Source of the DNA: Escherichia coli O157:H7
GTDB lineage: Bacteria; Pseudomonadota; Gammaproteobacteria; Enterobacterales; Enterobacteriaceae
NCBI RefSeq assembly: GCF_013167455.1
Contig: NZ_CP038328.1
Strand: one strand, 5' to 3'
Length of the DNA stretch: 64,000 nucleotides
Shown: piece after piece, positions 35,593 through 60,459 of the stretch
Layout of the letters: each line of letters starts with the position of its first letter
Numbering within the stretch: position 1 is the first letter of the stretch
The notes under the pieces: generated by a model
Databases searched by the model: none
What the model was told of the DNA's origin: nothing
Seen by the model: only the letters and a program-made list of their open reading frames with translations
Made by a program: the position numbers and the translations under genes

Positions 35593-35677
35593 CATTTAAG
35601 CTGATGACCACCGCGCTTTTTATTGACCATTTTGCACGCAAACTGGAAAACCTGGCGTCGTCATCTATTCTTAAAGG

Positions 35678-35780
35678 GCAAGGCAACTAAGCCTGCATTA
35701 ATGCCAACTTTTAGCGCACGGCTCTCTCCCAAGAGCCATTTCCCTGGACCGAATACAGGAATCGTGTTCGGTCTCTTTTT
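35678..35780 (+). ncRNA. sdsR: SdsR (RyeB) sigma-S-dependent sRNA
   Basis: Sequence gcaaggcaactaagcctgcattaatgcc...gaccgaatacaggaatcgtgttcggtctcttttt recognised; sigma-S-like -10 CTATTCT at 35665..35671; terminal hairpin GACCGAA/TTCGGTC plus U-run. Confidence 0.8.
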
Positions 35781-35914
35781 ATCTGTTAAAAGCCAGAAGC
35801 ATTTCCTTCGCTGACTTTATAGTCAACCATAACACACACTCTACTGTCTGAGTCCAGCGTTTTTTAACATTCTTGTTAAGATTATGTGATCTTTAGCGCG
35901 GGAGGAAAATATTG

Positions 35915-50668: not shown

Positions 50669-51293
50669 AATTCATCCTGATTATACGCACTGTCATGGTG
50701 CAACTGCTTCAAATTAAAACTCTGGTCTGACTTCAAATAATTATCATATTATTTATTTGCGTAACGGGATATCAGAAAAAGATATTTACCCCATTAATTT
50801 ATTAGGATGTTTACATCGGATTTGTGATTAAGCGTGGTATTATTTATTAGCGAAACGTTTCTCTCTTGATTTTTTTTGCTTATTCATCAATTTTTCTTAT
50901 TTTAAATTTCCAATTCCTTTGGGATTGACTTCTCTTTGGGGTGATTGAGAGCCGTTAACTGCCTGTTTTATGAGAAAAAGTGATATAACTTTTTATTCAT
51001 TGCATAGCAGAAAATGTGATATTGCACGCACTATGTAATAACTTCTCCCACTGACCTGGAACAACTGAACTTATTGAACTATGTTAGAAACTACGTCAGT
51101 TTAAGTATCTGCGGAACTGACAAGGTTAAGCACAATGATATATCGGCGCGTATTCCGTTGCATAAGTGTGCAAAAAAAGTGGAAGACGTATCGAGATTTG
51201 TGCGTCTGATCGAGACATGTTTAAAAATGGCTTGCCATAATTAACGTTGTATGTGATAACAGATTTCGGGTTAAACGAGGTACAGTTCTGTTT

Positions 51294-51437
51294 ATGTGTG
51301 GCATTTTCAGTAAAGAAGTCCTGAGTAAACACGTTGACGTTGAATACCGCTTCTCTGCCGAGCCTTATATTGGTGCCTCATGCAGTAATGTGTCAGTTTT
51401 ATCTATGTTATGCCTGCGGGCGAAGAAAACAATCTAA
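51294..51437 (+). CDS. yobF: YobF, 47-aa small protein in the cspC leader; below the ORF-track size cutoff
   Basis: ATG 51294 to TAA 51435..51437; translation [47 protein letters not shown]; 12 nt before cspC. Confidence 0.8.
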
Positions 51438-51449
51438 GGAATTTTTCAA

Positions 51450-51659
51450 ATGGCAAAGATTAAAGGTCAGGTTAAGTGGTTCAACGAGTCTAAAGGTTTT
51501 GGCTTCATTACTCCTGCTGATGGCAGCAAAGACGTGTTCGTACACTTCTCCGCTATCCAGGGTAATGGCTTCAAAACTCTGGCTGAAGGTCAGAACGTTG
51601 AGTTCGAAATTCAGGACGGCCAGAAAGGTCCGGCAGCTGTTAACGTAACAGCTATCTGA
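51450..51659 (+). CDS. cspC: Cold-shock-domain protein CspC
   Basis: 69 aa; RNP1 motif KGFGFI. Confidence 0.95.
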
Positions 51660-51703
51660 TCGAATCCACTGATCTGAAGTGTGAATACGCTTCAATCTCG
51701 CTA

Positions 51704-51732
51704 TAAAGCCTCGTCGAATGCGAGGCTTTTTA
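51704..51732 (+). terminator. Rho-independent terminator after cspC
   Basis: aaagcctcgtcgaatgcgaggcttttt. Confidence 0.75.
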
Positions 51733-51824
51733 CTATGCTTTATCTTCGCTCCTGGCGTTCGGATATTTGCCCGCCGCGTGATTCGCGTTACACTTGCGGC
51801 CTTTAGTATCCTGCCGGAGTTGTC

Positions 51825-53197: not shown

Positions 53198-53435
53198 GAC
53201 AACGTCCTGACCGGGGTATCCATAAAACACATCATCGCCCCCAGCAAACATGCATACATGAACAACAAGCCGCGATGGGTTTTCGCGTTCATGCAGGCAT
53301 AGCGATTGATGTGCATATGGTCTCGCCTGACTGAAAGTCTTCAGTCCGTACGTGCCACGTTTTGCAACGAGTATGTTGACACGTACATTTCCGGAATCTG
53401 GAAATTGGCTACTCCCCAAATGAGGGCGCAACCTT
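53198..53435 (-). ncRNA. sraF: yybP-ykoY Mn2+ riboswitch (SraF) in the mntP 5' leader; 5' bound approximate
   Basis: Reverse complement of 53409..53418 reads GGGGAGUAGC, the hallmark yybP-ykoY motif; roughly 240-nt leader ahead of the mntP ATG. Confidence 0.7.
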
Positions 53436-53561
53436 AACATATTTTGAGAATATAAAACAACTGTTGGAATATATTATTTTATTGCTTTGTTGATAACGAT
53501 TTTCATTTAGATTTATATATCAATGAAACGTTATAATAAATAACAAATAAGGGAAGAGGTA

Positions 53562-53620
53562 ATATAGCCTAAGCTATGTCTGATTATTAAAAATACACTA
53601 AACATAGCTTTGGCTAAATT
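53562..53620. promoter_or_regulatory. Two candidate MntR operators upstream of the mntP promoter
   Basis: atatagcctaagctatgt (53562..53579) and aacatagctttggctaaa (53601..53618) resemble the MntR palindrome AACATAGC-N4-GCTATGTT. Confidence 0.55.
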
Positions 53621-53626
53621 AATAAC

Positions 53627-54085
53627 TCATTGAGTTGAAACGAGAAGTTTATAAATTCTTTCCAGATCGTCGATATTTCGAACGCGGATTAACAGCCGAC
53701 GCTGTTCTAATTGCATCACCAACACGCCATCTTCCGACAAGTTCATCGCTTTGATTCGGCTATATTCAATCCAGACATTGGCGAAGAAAAAACCTTTTTG
53801 TTTAAAGATGATCTTCGGAACGCGGATCCAGAATATATAAAAACCCATCAGAGCCAGTGCGCTTAATAACCATGTCGTTATTAACGCACCATGATTCGTG
53901 ACGTTGTTATAGATAAGAATGACAATCAATCCGACGAAGATAACGCTATCGATGCGACCACGCCGGAGCAAAGGAATTGCCAGCAGGGTGGGGCCGTTAC
54001 GGCGGGGCATGATGAACTGATCGTAGATCGCGAAGGCCAGGAGTGCGGCGATGAAAAGAATCAGTACCAGGTCCGTGATTGTCAT
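53627..54085 (-). CDS. yobD: DUF986 inner membrane protein YobD
   Basis: 152-aa ORF. Confidence 0.8.
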
Positions 54086-55003: not shown

Positions 55004-55804
55004 TTAGTCCAGTTCGTTATCGAGATCGTTGTTACCAGCTGCCTGAGCAGGCGCACCGGCTACGCGGTTGTATTTCGGGCTAAGTTGGATGTAGAGCACT
55101 GCCATAACAGTACCAATCACACCCAGAGCAACCAGGTTAAAGTTGGTGAATGCTGCGGTTACGAAGCCGAGGTAGAAGAACGGCATCAGGTAGCCAGCAC
55201 GCATCATGTTGATAACCATCGCATAACCAACCACCACGATCATGCCACCGGCGATATTCAGACCATTGGTCACCACTTCCGGAATCGCATTCAGCATGTT
55301 CTGTACTTCGCTGGTACCTACAGACAGCGCAACGATGACGGCCGGAATAGCCACACGCATTGCTTGCAGGAACAGAGAAGAAACGTGGATCCAGGAAATC
55401 GCTGTCAGGTTGCCGTTATCAGCAGCCTTATCCGCAGCGTGCTGGAAAGCAACGGTAATAGTACGAACGATGATGGTCAGTACCTGGCCCGCAGCGGCCA
55501 GAGGGATTGCCAGTGCAATACCTGCACCAATGCTCTGATGACCTGCGATAACCAGAATGGTAGAAATGATAGATGCCAGAGCGGCGTCAGGCGCAACTGC
55601 AGCACCGATGTTCATCCAGCCCAGCGCGATCATTTCCAGCGTACCACCGATAATAATACCGGTTTTCATATCCCCAAGAACGATACCCACCAGGGTACAC
55701 GCGATTAGCGGACGGTGAAACTGAAATTCATCGAGGATTGATCCCATACCTGCGATACAGGCTACGATAAATACCAGCACAATTTGAAGAGTGGTAATCT
55801 CCAT
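55004..55804 (-). CDS. manY: Mannose PTS EIIC component
   Basis: 266-aa ORF. Confidence 0.9.
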   Translation of the reverse strand: MEITTLQIVLVFIVACIAGMGSILDEFQFHRPLIACTLVGIVLGDMKTGIIIGGTLEMIALGWMNIGAAVAPDAALASIISTILVIAGHQSIGAGIALAIPLAAAGQVLTIIVRTITVAFQHAADKAADNGNLTAISWIHVSSLFLQAMRVAIPAVIVALSVGTSEVQNMLNAIPEVVTNGLNIAGGMIVVVGYAMVINMMRAGYLMPFFYLGFVTAAFTNFNLVALGVIGTVMAVLYIQLSPKYNRVAGAPAQAAGNNDLDNELD

Positions 55805-55866
55805 TGTACTTCTCCTGTTTACGTATGACTAAAGTGTGAAAACTGACTGATAATCAACACAATACG

Positions 55867-56838
55867 TTACTTATCGATTTTGCTGATCAGATCCATCATT
55901 TTCAGTTTCGGATCGGTGGAAACCTTACGGACTTCCAGCTCAATACCGCGTGCATTCAGTTTTTTGAACGCCTCGATATCTTTTTCATCAACCGAAACCG
56001 CGTTATTCACTTGGGTTTTACCCTGACGGAATGCCATACCACCGACGTTAACAGAGGTGATTTTCACGCCGCCTTCAACGAGACGCTCTACATCTGTTGG
56101 GTTGGTAAATAACAGCATTACACGTTCGCCAGCATATTTCGGGTTGTTGTAGACGCGAATCATTTTGGCAACATCAACTACGTGTGCTGTTACGCCCGGA
56201 GGTGCAACCTGGGTGAGCAGTGTCTTACGAACAGTATCCGCAGCCACTTCATCACTAACAACAATAATACGGGAGACATTGGTTTCTTTGGTCCAGCGGG
56301 TGGCGACCTGACCGTGAATCAGACGGTCGTCGATACGCGCAAGGCCAATAACCATGTAGTCGTTTGGCCCCATTGGTTTTGCCGGAGTTGGAGCCGCTTT
56401 GGGTGCTGCGGCAGCGGGTGCTGGCGCGGCTTTTTCAACCGGTTTGGCTTTCAGTGCTTTCACGCCTTCACGGCCTGTTTCTACTGCCAGCGCAACCAGT
56501 TCATCAAAGCTTGGGTCATCATCACGAGCCATTAACGTTTCCACGAGCATTGGAATGTTAACGCCTGCAATGACTTCATAATGCTCTTTGTCGACGACAA
56601 TGCGGCTGGCAGCATTGAACGGGCTGCCTCCCCATGTATCAACGAGAAACAGCACGCCTTTAGTGGTGTCGAGTTTTGCCAACTGAGCGTTGTACTTTTC
56701 AATCAGCGTTTCGGCATTTTCACCTGGAACGAAATCGATCCAGCCGACGTTTTCCTGCTCGCCTAACAGCATTTCTGCCGTTTTAAGCAACTGCTCTGCA
56801 GCCCAACCATGTGTGCCTATAACAATAGCAATGGTCAC
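55867..56838 (-). CDS. manX: Mannose PTS EIIAB component
   Basis: 323 aa; Ala/Pro-rich linker between IIA and IIB domains. Confidence 0.95.
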   Translation of the reverse strand: MTIAIVIGTHGWAAEQLLKTAEMLLGEQENVGWIDFVPGENAETLIEKYNAQLAKLDTTKGVLFLVDTWGGSPFNAASRIVVDKEHYEVIAGVNIPMLVETLMARDDDPSFDELVALAVETGREGVKALKAKPVEKAAPAPAAAAPKAAPTPAKPMGPNDYMVIGLARIDDRLIHGQVATRWTKETNVSRIIVVSDEVAADTVRKTLLTQVAPPGVTAHVVDVAKMIRVYNNPKYAGERVMLLFTNPTDVERLVEGGVKITSVNVGGMAFRQGKTQVNNAVSVDEKDIEAFKKLNARGIELEVRKVSTDPKLKMMDLISKIDK

Positions 56839-57300
56839 TTGCTACCTCCTTTATTATCGTTAACACCTCAACGTGCCAGATGTATTTTTGAATCGTCGTC
56901 CACAATCGAATCGATTCAGATAAGGGCTACAACCAAAAACCCCTGCGTTTCGCGATTTATTTTAGATATCGAAAAAATTATTTTATGTGATGAAGATCCG
57001 TAATTTAACTTTCGATTAGCAGAAATTTCGAAAGGTAAAATATCCTTGTCACATTCGTTTGCAAAGGAAGGTAAATCTTTGCCAAATCAGAGGCGTCTCT
57101 GATATGTTTAACTCCCGTTTAACAATCATGGAGTATAGGGCAGTAGCCCGCAGTATGGATCGTCACCGACGTCATTTCAGCATCAGGCCTTTTAACGCCT
57201 GCCTTTCTGGCACTCTATGCCGCACCTTTCGTTTGCATTTTGTCGTTACGCCTGCATTATTTCTGGCGTCGAATAGCTATTCCTTAAGCAGGAGCTTGTC

Positions 57301-58857
57301 ATGGAATTCTTAATGGACCCCTCAATTTGGGCGGGGCTACTCACGCTTGTTGTTCTCGAAATTGTGCTGGGTATCGATAACCTGGTCTTCATCGCCATTC
57401 TTGCTGACAAACTGCCGCCAAAACAACGCGATAAAGCGCGTTTGCTGGGGTTATCACTGGCGCTGATTATGCGTCTGGGGCTGCTGTCGCTGATTTCATG
57501 GATGGTCACGCTGACCAAACCGCTATTTACCGTCATGGATTTCTCCTTCTCCGGACGCGACCTGATTATGTTGTTCGGGGGGATATTCTTGCTGTTCAAA
57601 GCAACAACCGAACTGCATGAACGGCTGGAAAACCGCGATCATGATTCCGGCCACGGTAAAGGCTACGCCAGTTTCTGGGTGGTCGTCACACAGATTGTCA
57701 TCCTTGACGCCGTCTTCTCGTTGGATGCGGTAATTACTGCAGTAGGGATGGTTAACCATCTGCCGGTGATGATGGCGGCGGTAGTGATTGCGATGGCGGT
57801 TATGTTGCTGGCATCCAAACCGCTGACGCGATTCGTTAACCAGCACCCCACGGTGGTGGTGCTCTGTCTGAGCTTCCTGTTAATGATTGGTCTGAGTCTG
57901 GTGGCAGAAGGTTTCGGTTTCCACATTCCGAAAGGTTACCTGTATGCCGCGATTGGCTTCTCGATCATCATCGAAGTGTTTAACCAGATTGCGCGTCGCA
58001 ACTTTATTCGTCACCAGTCGACTTTGCCGCTGCGAGCGCGTACTGCCGATGCCATCCTGCGTTTGATGGGCGGGAAACGTCAGGCCAATGTTCAGCACGA
58101 TGCCGATAACCCGATGCCGATGCCGATCCCGGAAGGTGCATTTGCCGAAGAAGAACGTTACATGATTAACGGCGTACTGACGCTGGCGTCGCGTTCTCTG
58201 CGCGGGATCATGACGCCGCGCGGTGAAATAAGCTGGGTTGACGCTAATCTCGGGGTCGATGAAATCCGCGAGCAGCTGCTCTCCTCACCGCACAGCCTGT
58301 TCCCGGTATGTCGCGGTGAACTGGATGAAATCATCGGAATCGTACGTGCTAAAGAACTGCTGGTGGCGCTGGAAGAGGGCGTTGATGTGGCGGCGATTGC
58401 TTCGGCGTCTCCGGCGATTATCGTCCCTGAAACCCTCGATCCGATCAACCTGCTGGGCGTGCTGCGTCGTGCTCGCGGGAGCTTTGTTATCGTGACCAAC
58501 GAGTTTGGTGTGGTACAAGGCTTGGTCACGCCGCTGGATGTGCTGGAAGCCATTGCGGGTGAATTCCCGGACGCTGACGAAACGCCGGAAATCATTACTG
58601 ATGGTGACGGCTGGCTGGTAAAAGGCGGTACAGATTTGCATGCCTTGCAGCAGGCGCTTGATGTTGAGCACCTTGCCGATGACGATGATATCGCGACGGT
58701 CGCGGGCCTCGTGATCTCGGCAAATGGTCACATTCCCCGTGTGGGCGATGTGATTGATGTAGGGCCACTGCATATCACCATCATTGAAGCCAATGATTAT
58801 CGTGTTGATCTGGTTCGCATTGTTAAAGAGCAACCGGCGCACGATGAAGATGAGTAA
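57301..58857 (+). CDS. yoaE: TerC-family membrane protein with C-terminal CBS / CorC domains, YoaE
   Basis: 518-aa ORF. Confidence 0.85.
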
Positions 58858-58860
58858 GCG

Positions 58861-60459
58861 TTAACGTAACGGCATAATGGGCGTGATATGTCCATTATGC
58901 CGGGCGGGCGGCGGTTGGCTGCCCGCCAGCCATTTGGGAAAATCACGTAGCGGCATCGGCTGTGCGTACAAATACCCTTGCAAAATATGCACGCCATGAC
59001 GGCGCAAATACTTCGCCTGTTCTTGCGTTTCCACGCCCTCCGCCACCAGTTCAATATTCAGTCTTTGCCCCAGCGCGATGATGATATCGGTCACCGTCGA
59101 GTTAACCGCGTCAGAACCTATAGCTGCGGTAAATGACTTATCAATTTTCAGCACGTCAGGACGTAATGTTTCAAGCCAGGAAAATGAACTGTTGCCGGTG
59201 CCGAAGTCATCAATCGCCAGTTTGACGTTTTTACGATGTAGCTCGCGGGCAATCCGATAATCAACATCCAGTAAGGCATCGCGTTCGGTGATTTCGAGGA
59301 TCAGTTGCTGAATCGGGTGAGCGCTAAACCAGTACTGATTGAGATCTTTTATCAGCACACCACGGCGAAAATGGCTGGGTGCGACGTTAATGCCAACATG
59401 AAACTGACTACTCATCGGGAAAACATGGCGCTGACGAATGGTTTCTGCCATCACATAGCGGGTCAGTGGCACAATTAAATGATGTTCTTCCGCGATAGGA
59501 ATAAACACATCCGGTGAAATCCAGCCCTGACGCGGATTGTTCCAGCGCAGCAAAATCTCTACACCAATACATTGCTGGCTGCGCGCATTAAGCAAAGGCT
59601 GACAGAACAATTCGAACTCATGTTGCGCCAGGCCCAGATTGATTTCGCGGGAAAAGCTCATTCGGTAAGCGGTCGCCAGCCAGGCGATGTAGCCCACCAG
59701 TAAACTTAGCAGTACCGCCAGCGGTAATTGTGTTGGAAGATAGTGCCATGCCAGCGCCGGAGCCCCCGGACCATTAACGTTAATGGTAAAAGAAAAGCGT
59801 TGCGAAGAAACCTGATAGTTTTCATTGTCTTCAGGTTGTGGAAGGGAATCTACCAGCCCATTACCATAGAGCAAATGCCGTTTGTCCACCGTCAGGCTGG
59901 CGCTACTGATTTGCGGCAGTTGTGGCTCAAGCAGCATTGCCGTCAGTAAGTCGATGTTAATCATCTCCATGACCCCAGCATTGCTACTGCTCGCTGCAGG
60001 CGTCCATTGAATCAAAACCGGACTGCCTTTAATCAGGACACGGTCGGTCGTCAGGCGTAAAAGTGGTTGCGGTGCAGGAAGTTCAGCCAGAATGTCCACG
60101 ACGGGCACATTGCGATAACCAAAAATGCTGGAGCAATAAAGTGTGCCGTCTTGCACCAGGCCAATGGATCGCACAGTTTGGAGTTTTGCCGCCTGTTTAC
60201 GTAATGGCAAATGGGCGACAGAGCAGGGCAGACCAATCAGCGGAAGCAAGACTTCGCTACCTGCCTGTAGGGGAAGCAGTACTTTATCTAATTCCTCTAC
60301 AGCGTGATTGGCGAATTGTACTACCCGTTGTTGATTTAAGTTACGCTGTGAAATAAATCGCACGCTCAGGGTCGAAGCGAGCGTAACGAGTGCGCAAATC
60401 GTACAAACAATCATTCGATTACGGCGATAGGTTTTAATGATCCGTTGTGCTTTTTGCAT
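58861..60459 (-). CDS. pdeD: c-di-GMP phosphodiesterase PdeD (YoaD), CSS-EAL type
   Basis: 532 aa from the internal ATG (MQKAQRIIK); EAL-domain motifs incl. EITER at the usual EAL position. Confidence 0.85.
   Translation of the reverse strand: MQKAQRIIKTYRRNRMIVCTICALVTLASTLSVRFISQRNLNQQRVVQFANHAVEELDKVLLPLQAGSEVLLPLIGLPCSVAHLPLRKQAAKLQTVRSIGLVQDGTLYCSSIFGYRNVPVVDILAELPAPQPLLRLTTDRVLIKGSPVLIQWTPAASSSNAGVMEMINIDLLTAMLLEPQLPQISSASLTVDKRHLLYGNGLVDSLPQPEDNENYQVSSQRFSFTINVNGPGAPALAWHYLPTQLPLAVLLSLLVGYIAWLATAYRMSFSREINLGLAQHEFELFCQPLLNARSQQCIGVEILLRWNNPRQGWISPDVFIPIAEEHHLIVPLTRYVMAETIRQRHVFPMSSQFHVGINVAPSHFRRGVLIKDLNQYWFSAHPIQQLILEITERDALLDVDYRIARELHRKNVKLAIDDFGTGNSSFSWLETLRPDVLKIDKSFTAAIGSDAVNSTVTDIIIALGQRLNIELVAEGVETQEQAKYLRRHGVHILQGYLYAQPMPLRDFPKWLAGSQPPPARHNGHITPIMPLR

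Follow-up and report, generated by a model that had tools for sequence, protein, structure and literature searches.

The region upstream of yoaE (mgpA) in Escherichia coli O157:H7 is very probably the promoter and translated leader of the yoaL-yoaE operon, with a chance palindrome in the promoter spacer

The DNA analysed here is a single stretch of 64,000 nucleotides from Escherichia coli O157:H7 (the window), and this work concerns the 462-bp interval between manX and yoaE (positions 56839-57300). The interval was 100% identical to E. coli O157:H7, and the region was found in 5422 of the 5426 complete E. coli genomes. The genes at the locus are as follows:

manZ, manY and manX (manX at 55867-56838), minus strand, RefSeq genes
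57155-57313, plus strand, yoaL, a 52-codon leader ORF (MDRHRRHF...SRSLSWNS*), RefSeq CDS ending 13 nt inside yoaE
57301-58857, plus strand, yoaE (mgpA), cation transporter, RefSeq gene encoding TerC, CBS and CorC_HlyC domains
after yoaE, minus strand, pdeD, RefSeq gene

The TerC, CBS and CorC domains, which an earlier prediction made from the sequence (the original prediction) had assigned to YoaE, were all detected. In Salmonella this protein has been renamed MgpA, and it is protective against excess Mg2+ (PMC12421838). The leader was also expected to be relatively GC-rich, and GC content was indeed 46-51% in 57080-57240, compared to 25-34% in the AT-rich manX control region (56920-57079). 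The promoter region contains the following features:

57061-57075, plus strand, putative CpxR box GCAAAggaagGTAAA, one mismatch (GCAAA-N5-GTAAA) to the consensus GTAAA-N5-GTAAA, directly upstream of the -35 hexamer
57079-57084, plus strand, -35 hexamer TTGCCA of the yoaL-yoaE promoter, from the promoter scan; block CTTTGCCAAA conserved in 79 species
57086-57103, no strand, inverted repeat ATCAGAG-gcgt-CTCTGAT, arms at 57086-57092 and 57097-57103, gcgt at 57093-57096
57100-57108, plus strand, extended -10 TGaTATGTT, from the promoter scan, 18 bp after the -35 hexamer
57105-57121, plus strand, PhoP box TGTTTA-actcc-CGTTTA (TGTTTAactccCGTTTA), one mismatch, at -12 to +5 of the transcription start
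57117, plus strand, yoaL-yoaE transcription start (a G), SMRT-Cappable-seq (PMC6131387, supplementary file 4)

The consensus promoter scan placed the -10 hexamer TATGTT at 57103-57108, with nine of twelve hexamer positions matching and a TG upstream. In the SMRT-Cappable-seq operon table, the start of b1816 (yoaE) is at 1901769 on the reverse strand of NC_000913.3 (PMC6131387), which corresponds to 57117 in the window (K-12 coordinate = 1958886 minus window coordinate). This conversion was verified against the published yoaL coordinates (1901573-1901782) and the genome match of the interval. The start is located 8 nt past the -10 hexamer and, together with the hexamer spacing, agrees with what is expected of a sigma-70 promoter (spacing of 16-18 bp, start 5-9 nt downstream). 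Positions 57079-57108 are the sigma-70 promoter of yoaL-yoaE, with its start at 57117. This start comes from a single dataset of K-12 grown in M9 and rich media, and other conditions could use another start. The 8 nt between the -10 hexamer and the start is above the typical distance.

Conservation was analysed by scanning one genome per species with YoaE, which yielded 80 loci (85-98% protein identity) in Enterobacteriaceae, spread over at least 25 genera. The inverted repeat was scored in the 78 loci with sufficient upstream DNA, while conservation of the promoter and leader was counted in an alignment of 79 species. This alignment revealed the promoter pattern GCAAA-N5-GTAAAT-CTTTGCCAAA-(about 10 variable bp)-TCTCTGnTA-TGTTTA-N5-CGTTTAA. 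The extended -10 (TCTCTGnTATGTTT) was conserved, and the distance from TTGCCA to TATGTT was constant among species while the sequence between them was not; constant distance and variable sequence are the signature of a promoter spacer. Conservation of the leader beyond E. coli had been left as a check, and the leader was kept across these genera.

The PhoP box fits the direct repeat (T/G)GTTTA-N5-(T/G)GTTTA with one mismatch, and its half-sites are conserved while the spacer varies across species. Both pentamers of the CpxR box are 90-100% conserved, again around a variable 5-bp spacer (79 species). Motif counts alone were not significant for either regulator (two PhoP matches against 1.06 expected, and 13 one-mismatch CpxR matches, both in the 64-kb window), and we therefore gave weight to half-site conservation and to the published footprints, which were made in Shigella and Salmonella rather than in this O157:H7 strain. 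In Shigella flexneri, PhoP-P bound the identical sequence aTGTTTAactccCGTTTAa in EMSA and DNase footprinting (PMC5775216). The evidence for CpxR-P binding comes from the Salmonella orthologue: in Salmonella Enteritidis, a CpxR-P DNase footprint (GCAAAGAGATGT) covers the equivalent site, at -235 to -262 from the yoaE ATG, and the induction of yoaE in egg white is cpxR-dependent (PMC6952189). Upstream of the PhoP box (11 bp), the sequence CGTCTC at 57094-57099 resembles a third, degenerate PhoP half-site and may possibly act as one.

Most characterised PhoP boxes take the place of the -35 hexamer and activate. The box of yoaE differs in spanning -12 to +5, a position suggestive of repression by occlusion. 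It resembles the PhoP-repressed promoters with a box over -10/+1 in its direct repeat, in its binding by PhoP-P in vitro and in the increase seen in a phoPQ mutant. The yoaE mutant/wild-type ratios in the Shigella phoPQ deletion were 7.14 (array) and 3.18 (qRT-PCR) (PMC5775216, Table 4), indicating that yoaE expression is higher without PhoPQ. A later paper (PMC6952189, mSphere) calls PhoP an up-regulator of yoaE, the opposite of what its source table in PMC5775216 says, so the sign of this regulation was reversed there.

If PhoP were nonetheless an activator here, the box could serve as the -35 element of a second promoter, with TATAGG (57134-57139) as the -10 and a start near 57146. A distance of 12 bp from box to hexamer is the usual layout of PhoP-activated promoters. 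This is the distance from the PhoP box to this TAnnGG hexamer, whose T and A are conserved, and the mSphere description of PhoP would agree with such an arrangement. We consider it quite unlikely, however: the primary data show higher yoaE expression in the phoPQ mutant, TATAGG lacks the final T, and the only mapped start is at 57117. Moreover, a transcript starting at 57146 would lose an invariant GGAG and half of a conserved hairpin (HP0, see below), leaving yoaL with a very short 5' UTR. Repression from a box over the mapped start is the reading we follow below.

The inverted repeat was the centre of the original prediction, which described a perfect 7-bp repeat about 200 nt before yoaE, followed by further short palindromes. 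The sequence agrees on both points: the repeat ATCAGAG-gcgt-CTCTGAT is perfect and lies 198 nt 5' of the yoaE ATG at 57301, and two 6-bp palindromes are present 3' of it (GACGTC at 57168 and AGGCCT at 57185). Its position relative to the promoter points to another interpretation, however. The repeat occupies -31 to -14 of the mapped start, in the promoter spacer between the -35 and -10 elements, with its right arm overlapping the extended -10. Since it is upstream of the start, it is promoter DNA and is absent from the yoaE mRNA; a yoaE transcript starting downstream of 57103, as this one does, had been named in advance as evidence against a leader element.

The repeat was not in excess of chance, either in shuffles of the intergenic region or in the count over the window. 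Of 5000 dinucleotide-preserving shuffles of the 462-bp region, 846 (17%) contained a perfect 7-bp repeat with a 3-8 nt loop, and the 64-kb window contains 57 such repeats, about 0.4 per 462 bp. Nor was the repeat conserved. In the left arm, identity to E. coli was 70% for the first position and 10-30% for the remaining six, while the right arm showed 70-90% at six positions and 40% at one (79 species). At the homologous site, the 7-bp repeat was present only in E. coli and E. whittamii (2 of 78 species), Escherichia sp. E1V33 had a 5-bp repeat, and no repeat of at least 4 bp was found in 59 of the 78 species, E. albertii, Salmonella, Citrobacter, Enterobacter and Klebsiella among them. Located upstream of the start and with a poorly conserved left arm, the repeat does not qualify as a hairpin of the leader RNA or as a conserved operator. 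The right arm owes its conservation to the extended -10, to which it belongs, and possibly also to the third PhoP half-site. The complementarity of the left arm probably arose by chance in the lineage of E. coli and E. whittamii, as judged from the alignment, and the repeat most likely has no function of its own.

A dimeric transcription-factor operator, acting on yoaE or divergently on manX in E. coli, is the natural alternative for a perfect palindrome of two 7-bp arms around a 4-bp centre that sits between the -35 and -10 elements, the classic position for a repressor. E. whittamii also retains both arms although its centre is different (atct instead of gcgt). We nevertheless regard such an operator as very unlikely. 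A repeat of this kind appears by chance in a substantial fraction of shuffles (see above), and the half-sites of an operator palindrome should both be conserved in orthologous promoters, whereas the left arm is unconserved in the genera named above while the other promoter blocks are all conserved. The repeat is not known to match an operator consensus, and candidates of this kind were dropped. A MetJ-box-like octamer (7/8) is centred in the repeat; it was rejected, as it has no tandem boxes and is not conserved. The chance palindrome in the promoter spacer therefore remains our reading of the repeat.

Downstream of the transcription start, the mRNA contains the following features, all of them on the plus strand:

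57129-57133, plus strand, putative Shine-Dalgarno-like (A/U)GGAG of yoaL, 21 nt before the AUG
57138-57149, plus strand, HP0, GGGC-agua-GCCC (57138-57141 with 57146-57149), between GGAG and the yoaL AUG, -7.3 kcal/mol
57158-57173, plus strand, near-invariant block GAyCGUCACCGACGyC in yoaL codons 2-6, with a potential 6-bp hairpin, HPa
57184-57201, plus strand, HP1, CAGGC-N8-GCCUG (57184-57188 with 57197-57201), yoaL codons 10-16, changes on both sides
57209-57221, plus strand, HP2, GGCA-N5-UGCC, closing pair AU in 17 and GC in 18 of 40 gap-free sequences
57249-57268, plus strand, HP3, CGCC...GGCG, pair exchanges in the 40 gap-free sequences
57279-57307, plus strand, HP4, AUUCC...GGAAU, enclosing the yoaE AGGAG (57290-57294) and part of the AUG, consensus fold of 40 sequences
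57311-57315, plus strand, UAAUG, the yoaL stop overlapping the AUG of yoaE codon 5; TTAATGGA 90-100% conserved

The leader had been taken for an element without annotation, which was not the case. RefSeq annotates yoaL in 14 of the 14 full-length records sampled, and its peptide matched Pfam PF22867 over the full length (1-52) with 138.1 bits (cut-off 27; E = 9.5e-41). The original yoaL call had 69 codons (K-12 1901573-1901782), and epitope tagging detected the protein (PMC6001520). Ribosome profiling later moved its start downstream, and changing the start codon to a stop codon strongly reduced yoaE-lacZ expression in E. coli (Weaver 2019, 10.1101/511675). With the transcription start mapped to 57117, the original upstream ATG (57104) is outside the mRNA, and yoaL is preceded by a 5' UTR of 38 nt. 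yoaL, its overlap with yoaE and its effect on yoaE expression are thus already known (VanOrsdel 2018; Weaver 2019; PF22867), and the locus, peptide and overlap analysed here are the same. To this, the present analysis adds the preservation of the ORF in 79 species, the near-invariant MDRHRR with its fixed Arg codons, the hairpin between Shine-Dalgarno and AUG, and the covarying hairpins HP1-HP3.

The yoaL ORF, starting with ATGGAyCGTCAyCGACG, was open in 79 of 79 Enterobacteriaceae species. It has 40-55 codons, and all length differences are multiples of three; this conserved frame lends indirect support to the published translation of yoaL. The 13-nt overlap between yoaL and yoaE was identical in 77 of the 79. 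The peptide is variable except at its start and over its final part, which coincides with the yoaE ribosome-binding site. Selection has maintained an open yoaL frame as far as the yoaE start, while only the first six codons and the last ones are fixed. The start MDRHRR was found in 74 species and MDPHRR in the remaining five (Raoultella-type sequences). Codon usage within this start was also fixed: where Arg is kept at codon 3 (74 sequences) it is always encoded by CGT, and the Arg at codon 5 by CGA throughout (79 of 79). This near absence of synonymous change indicates that the constraint is, at least in part, on the nucleotides. The GGAG at 57130-57133, probably the Shine-Dalgarno sequence of yoaL, was the same in all but one of the 79 species, which has GGGG.

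Next we considered the structure of the leader RNA. The whole E. coli leader was not unusually stable compared to shuffles (z = +0.85), and RNAalifold on the MAFFT alignment of all 79 leaders gave a nearly structureless fold (-7.25 kcal/mol), which we attribute to misalignment of the variable middle. We therefore ran the structure tests on two subsets, the 40 gap-free sequences and a short sub-alignment of the 5' part; each alignment served both to derive and to test its structures, and the sequences are related. HP0 was paired in 100% of the alignment cells (76 distinct sequences), with a variable loop, one CG-to-UA double change and four UG pairs. At each of its six modelled pairs, HP1 has changed on both sides, and its stem takes at least seven different forms (among them GGCA/UGCC, GACA/UGUC, GGUG/CACC, GAGUAC/GUACUC, GGGAU/AUCCC and GCACA/UGUGC). 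Taken jointly, HP0, HPa and HP1 had 88% of cells paired, compared to 19-45% with slid partners, and their covariation was equalled in none of 500 shuffles. HP2 is absent from Klebsiella, Raoultella and Kosakonia-type leaders, which have deletions. In HP3, positions 57249 and 57268 pair as CG in 30 sequences and as UA in 7, and positions 57253 and 57263 as UA in 14 and as CG in 13. The consensus fold of the 40 sequences contains 42 pairs, of which 13 showed double changes; 90% of pairings were canonical, compared to 31-44% when partners were slid. Compensatory changes thus appear to go beyond the controls in HP1 and, more weakly, in HP0, HP2 and HP3. The inverted repeat at 57086-57103 is part of no covarying helix.

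Two further pairings were not retained. HPa was not accepted as a proven structure, as it shows no compensatory changes and its pairing is broken in the five Raoultella-type sequences. In E. coli, HP1 and HP3 share ACGCCUGC and could instead pair with each other; Enterobacter-type leaders do not conserve this pairing, and it was dropped.

The yoaE initiation region is enclosed by HP4, with an energy of only -6.5 kcal/mol. Over 70 sequences, this region showed no extra stability compared to shuffles (mean z +0.28), and at least two bases of the AUG were paired in 18 of the 70 minimum-energy folds. In view of these thermodynamic results we do not claim strong sequestration of the yoaE start; occlusion by HP4, as modelled, would be weak.

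Riboswitches of the yybP-ykoY type (RF00080) are carried by TerC-family genes, for example mntP and alx. yoaE is also of the TerC family, and a metal- or metabolite-binding riboswitch in its leader would be a natural extension; one such copy, that of mntP, is in the same window, the hairpins conserved in the yoaE leader show compensatory changes, and yoaE expression is Mg2+-responsive. Unlike the mntP copy, however, the yoaE leader had no match in sequence or structure to this family. An Rfam scan of 55500-59500 (E ≤ 10) found no family matching the leader, only chance-level miRNA, CRISPR and snoRNA matches, none of them within 57060-57300, and scanning the whole window at gathering scores gave nothing near yoaE. 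The same settings detected the mntP Mn2+ riboswitch at 53329-53425 (40.1 bits, E = 6e-09) as a positive control. The original prediction had already failed to see a riboswitch signature here and had proposed an Rfam scan as a check on a cis-regulatory RNA; the scan bears out the former and returned no family for the latter. The hairpins of the leader are short, stand apart from one another and fall within a translated ORF, and several genera lack HP2. A multi-helix junction is absent, the yoaL start is the only unpaired core that is conserved, and the leader fold is no more stable than shuffles. In addition, the PhoP box could already explain the Mg2+ response. A riboswitch is in our view highly improbable. 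A trp-like attenuator was also considered and rejected, as 56700-57500 contains no GC-rich hairpin followed by a U-tract (0 terminator-like sites in the terminator scan).

Finally, the repeat might act as an RNA hairpin in another transcript, either a long manX leader or a condition-specific yoaE transcript from an upstream start; its energy is -8.6 to -8.7 kcal/mol on either strand and a 'novel' manXYZ-yobD start at 1901762 on the forward strand (57124, minus strand, in the window) reads through it (PMC6131387), but the hairpin is not conserved beyond two species, no U-tract follows it on either strand, and the -10 of that start (TATACT, 57137-57132, minus strand) lacks the key A in many species, so that the start is probably minor or lineage-specific and this reading exceedingly improbable.

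We conclude that 57060-57300 is, very probably, the promoter and translated leader of the yoaL-yoaE (mgpA) operon, and that the repeat is a chance palindrome in the spacer. The proposal of an uncharacterised cis-regulatory RNA or operator thus stands in part. The leader of this cation-transporter gene is a conserved cis-regulatory region, with some covarying hairpins and Mg2+-responsive expression, but the repeat itself is upstream of the start and unconserved, no Rfam riboswitch was found, and the PhoP box, the CpxR site and yoaL had all been described. What had drawn attention to the locus would then be a lineage-specific accident in a promoter spacer, next to a leader, a small ORF and two regulator sites that were already published.

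In the model we favour, CpxR-P would activate yoaL-yoaE from just upstream of the -35 hexamer under alkaline or envelope stress, as suggested by the binding and dependence seen in Salmonella. PhoP-P, bound at -12 to +5, would block RNA polymerase at low Mg2+ or acid pH, presumably by steric hindrance. In Salmonella, expression of an mgpA-lacZ fusion was higher at 10 mM Mg2+, only at neutral or alkaline pH (PMC12421838), and relief of PhoP repression may underlie this rise. The observation fits the model because PhoQ is off and Cpx is on under these conditions. The mapped start beside the footprinted PhoP box thus offers a simple account of the de-repression of mgpA/yoaE in the phoPQ mutant, and the position of the box would also account for the restriction of the high-Mg2+ rise to non-acidic pH.

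Translation of yoaL is, according to the E. coli data, required for yoaE expression, and it could act by several routes. Ribosomes might terminate and reinitiate at the yoaL-yoaE overlap, they might open the weak hairpin HP4 around the yoaE start, or translation might shield a C-rich, G-poor, rut-like leader from Rho. Across species, C makes up 32.7% and G 19.6% of the leader interior, a composition that would favour Rho loading. The mgtL-mgtA and corL-corA systems are alike in having a cation-transport gene behind a translated leader ORF, Mg2+-dependent expression and a leader that is likewise C-rich, G-poor and could load Rho. The yoaE leader differs in having no match to an Rfam Mg sensor family. 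Unlike mgtL and corL, yoaL is long (52 codons), is not rich in proline, extends over the entire leader and runs past the start of the downstream gene, and its translation promotes downstream expression instead of attenuating it.

A more speculative reading is that the yoaL leader is a cation-responsive translational or Rho-dependent switch and not only a passive coupling ORF. The codon-fixed MDRHRR (CGU-CAC-CGA-CGU), the hairpin between Shine-Dalgarno and AUG, and HP1-HP3 could set the initiation or traversal of yoaL according to Mg2+ or polyamine. We think this unlikely on present evidence, and the 2025 mBio paper (PMC12421838) offers sensing by the leader peptide as no more than a hypothesis. 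If true, synthesis of the MgpA exporter would be tuned independently of PhoP. The covarying hairpins and the near-invariant yoaL start are concrete targets for analysing how yoaL controls yoaE, and these points are relevant to research on Mg2+ homeostasis.

The spacing between the GGAG and the AUG of yoaL deserves a separate comment. In the split ribosome-binding sites of phage T4 genes 38 and 25, a hairpin brings a distant Shine-Dalgarno sequence beside the start codon. The yoaL GGAG is 21 nt from the AUG, with the conserved 4-bp GC hairpin HP0 between them, and in the structural model folding of HP0 would cut this spacing to about 9 nt; we offer the resemblance as a lead to a possible function of HP0.

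The sign of PhoP regulation at yoaE is reported in two ways. The 2020 mSphere paper describes yoaE in Shigella as up-regulated by PhoP (PMC6952189), but Table 4 of the study cited there gives a mutant/wild-type ratio of 7.14 for yoaE, that is, higher expression without PhoPQ (PMC5775216); the wording and the table point in opposite directions. The hexamer CGTCTC (57094-57099) lies exactly 11 bp upstream of the first half-site of the PhoP box (57105-57121), and the species alignment has TGTCTC as its equivalent in most species. CGTCTC may be a third, degenerate PhoP half-site; a site of this kind would be consistent with the footprint length of 25 nt and would account for the conservation of the right arm of the palindrome (57086-57103). 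The sole other PhoP-box-like match in the window, TGTTTAGTGTATTTTTA (53588-53604, minus strand), is inside a long palindromic stretch (53550-53631) that also gave chance-level matches to miRNA families on both strands.

Published SMRT-Cappable-seq data from K-12 (PMC6131387) place four manX starts on the minus strand:
56952, minus strand, manX start (K-12 1901934)
56973, minus strand, manX start (K-12 1901913)
57030, minus strand, manX start (K-12 1901856)
57124, minus strand, manX start listed as novel (K-12 1901762)
The start at 57124, accompanied by TATACT (57137-57132, minus strand), falls within the yoaL 5' UTR, and its transcript and that of the yoaE start run head-to-head with an 8-nt overlap. 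Conservation was very high in the AT-rich block 5' of manX (56955-57005 and 56958-57042). This block contains TGTGAtgaagaTCCGT, which is CRP-like and centred at about -41.5 relative to the 56952 start. There are also imperfect inverted repeats of 15-17 nt (TATTTTAGATATCGAAA / TTTCGAAAGGTAAAATA), which may be Mlc or NagC operators.

Two in-frame ATGs precede the yoaL start, at 57104 and 57128. ATG 57104, the start of the original 69-codon yoaL call, is upstream of the transcription start, while ATG 57128 is present only where the Shine-Dalgarno sequence is TGGAG (Escherichia). Weaver 2019 placed the likely yoaL start 13 codons downstream of the old one; however, the distance from 57104 to the start at 57155 is 17 codons. 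At the other end of yoaL, its stop codon overlaps the in-frame AUG of yoaE codon 5 (UAAUG, 57311-57315), an arrangement kept in 77 of the 79 species, and this AUG, rather than the annotated one at 57301, could be the reinitiation site.

Just past the yoaE stop (58857), a strong hairpin, CGGCATAATGG...CCATTATGCCG (58870-58902), lies within the final codons of the convergent pdeD. It was ruled out as a canonical intrinsic terminator because no U-tract follows it on either strand.

Gathering-level Rfam matches in the window included:
37-344, MicL sRNA
35640-35784, SraC/RyeA-SdsR/RyeB pair
51274-51734, cspA-type thermoregulator leader
The whole-window scan at gathering thresholds missed a match to RF00080 (yybP-ykoY, Mn2+ riboswitch; 53329-53425, minus strand; E=6e-09), since its 40.1 bits are slightly below the gathering score of 45 bits; this is presumably the known mntP leader.
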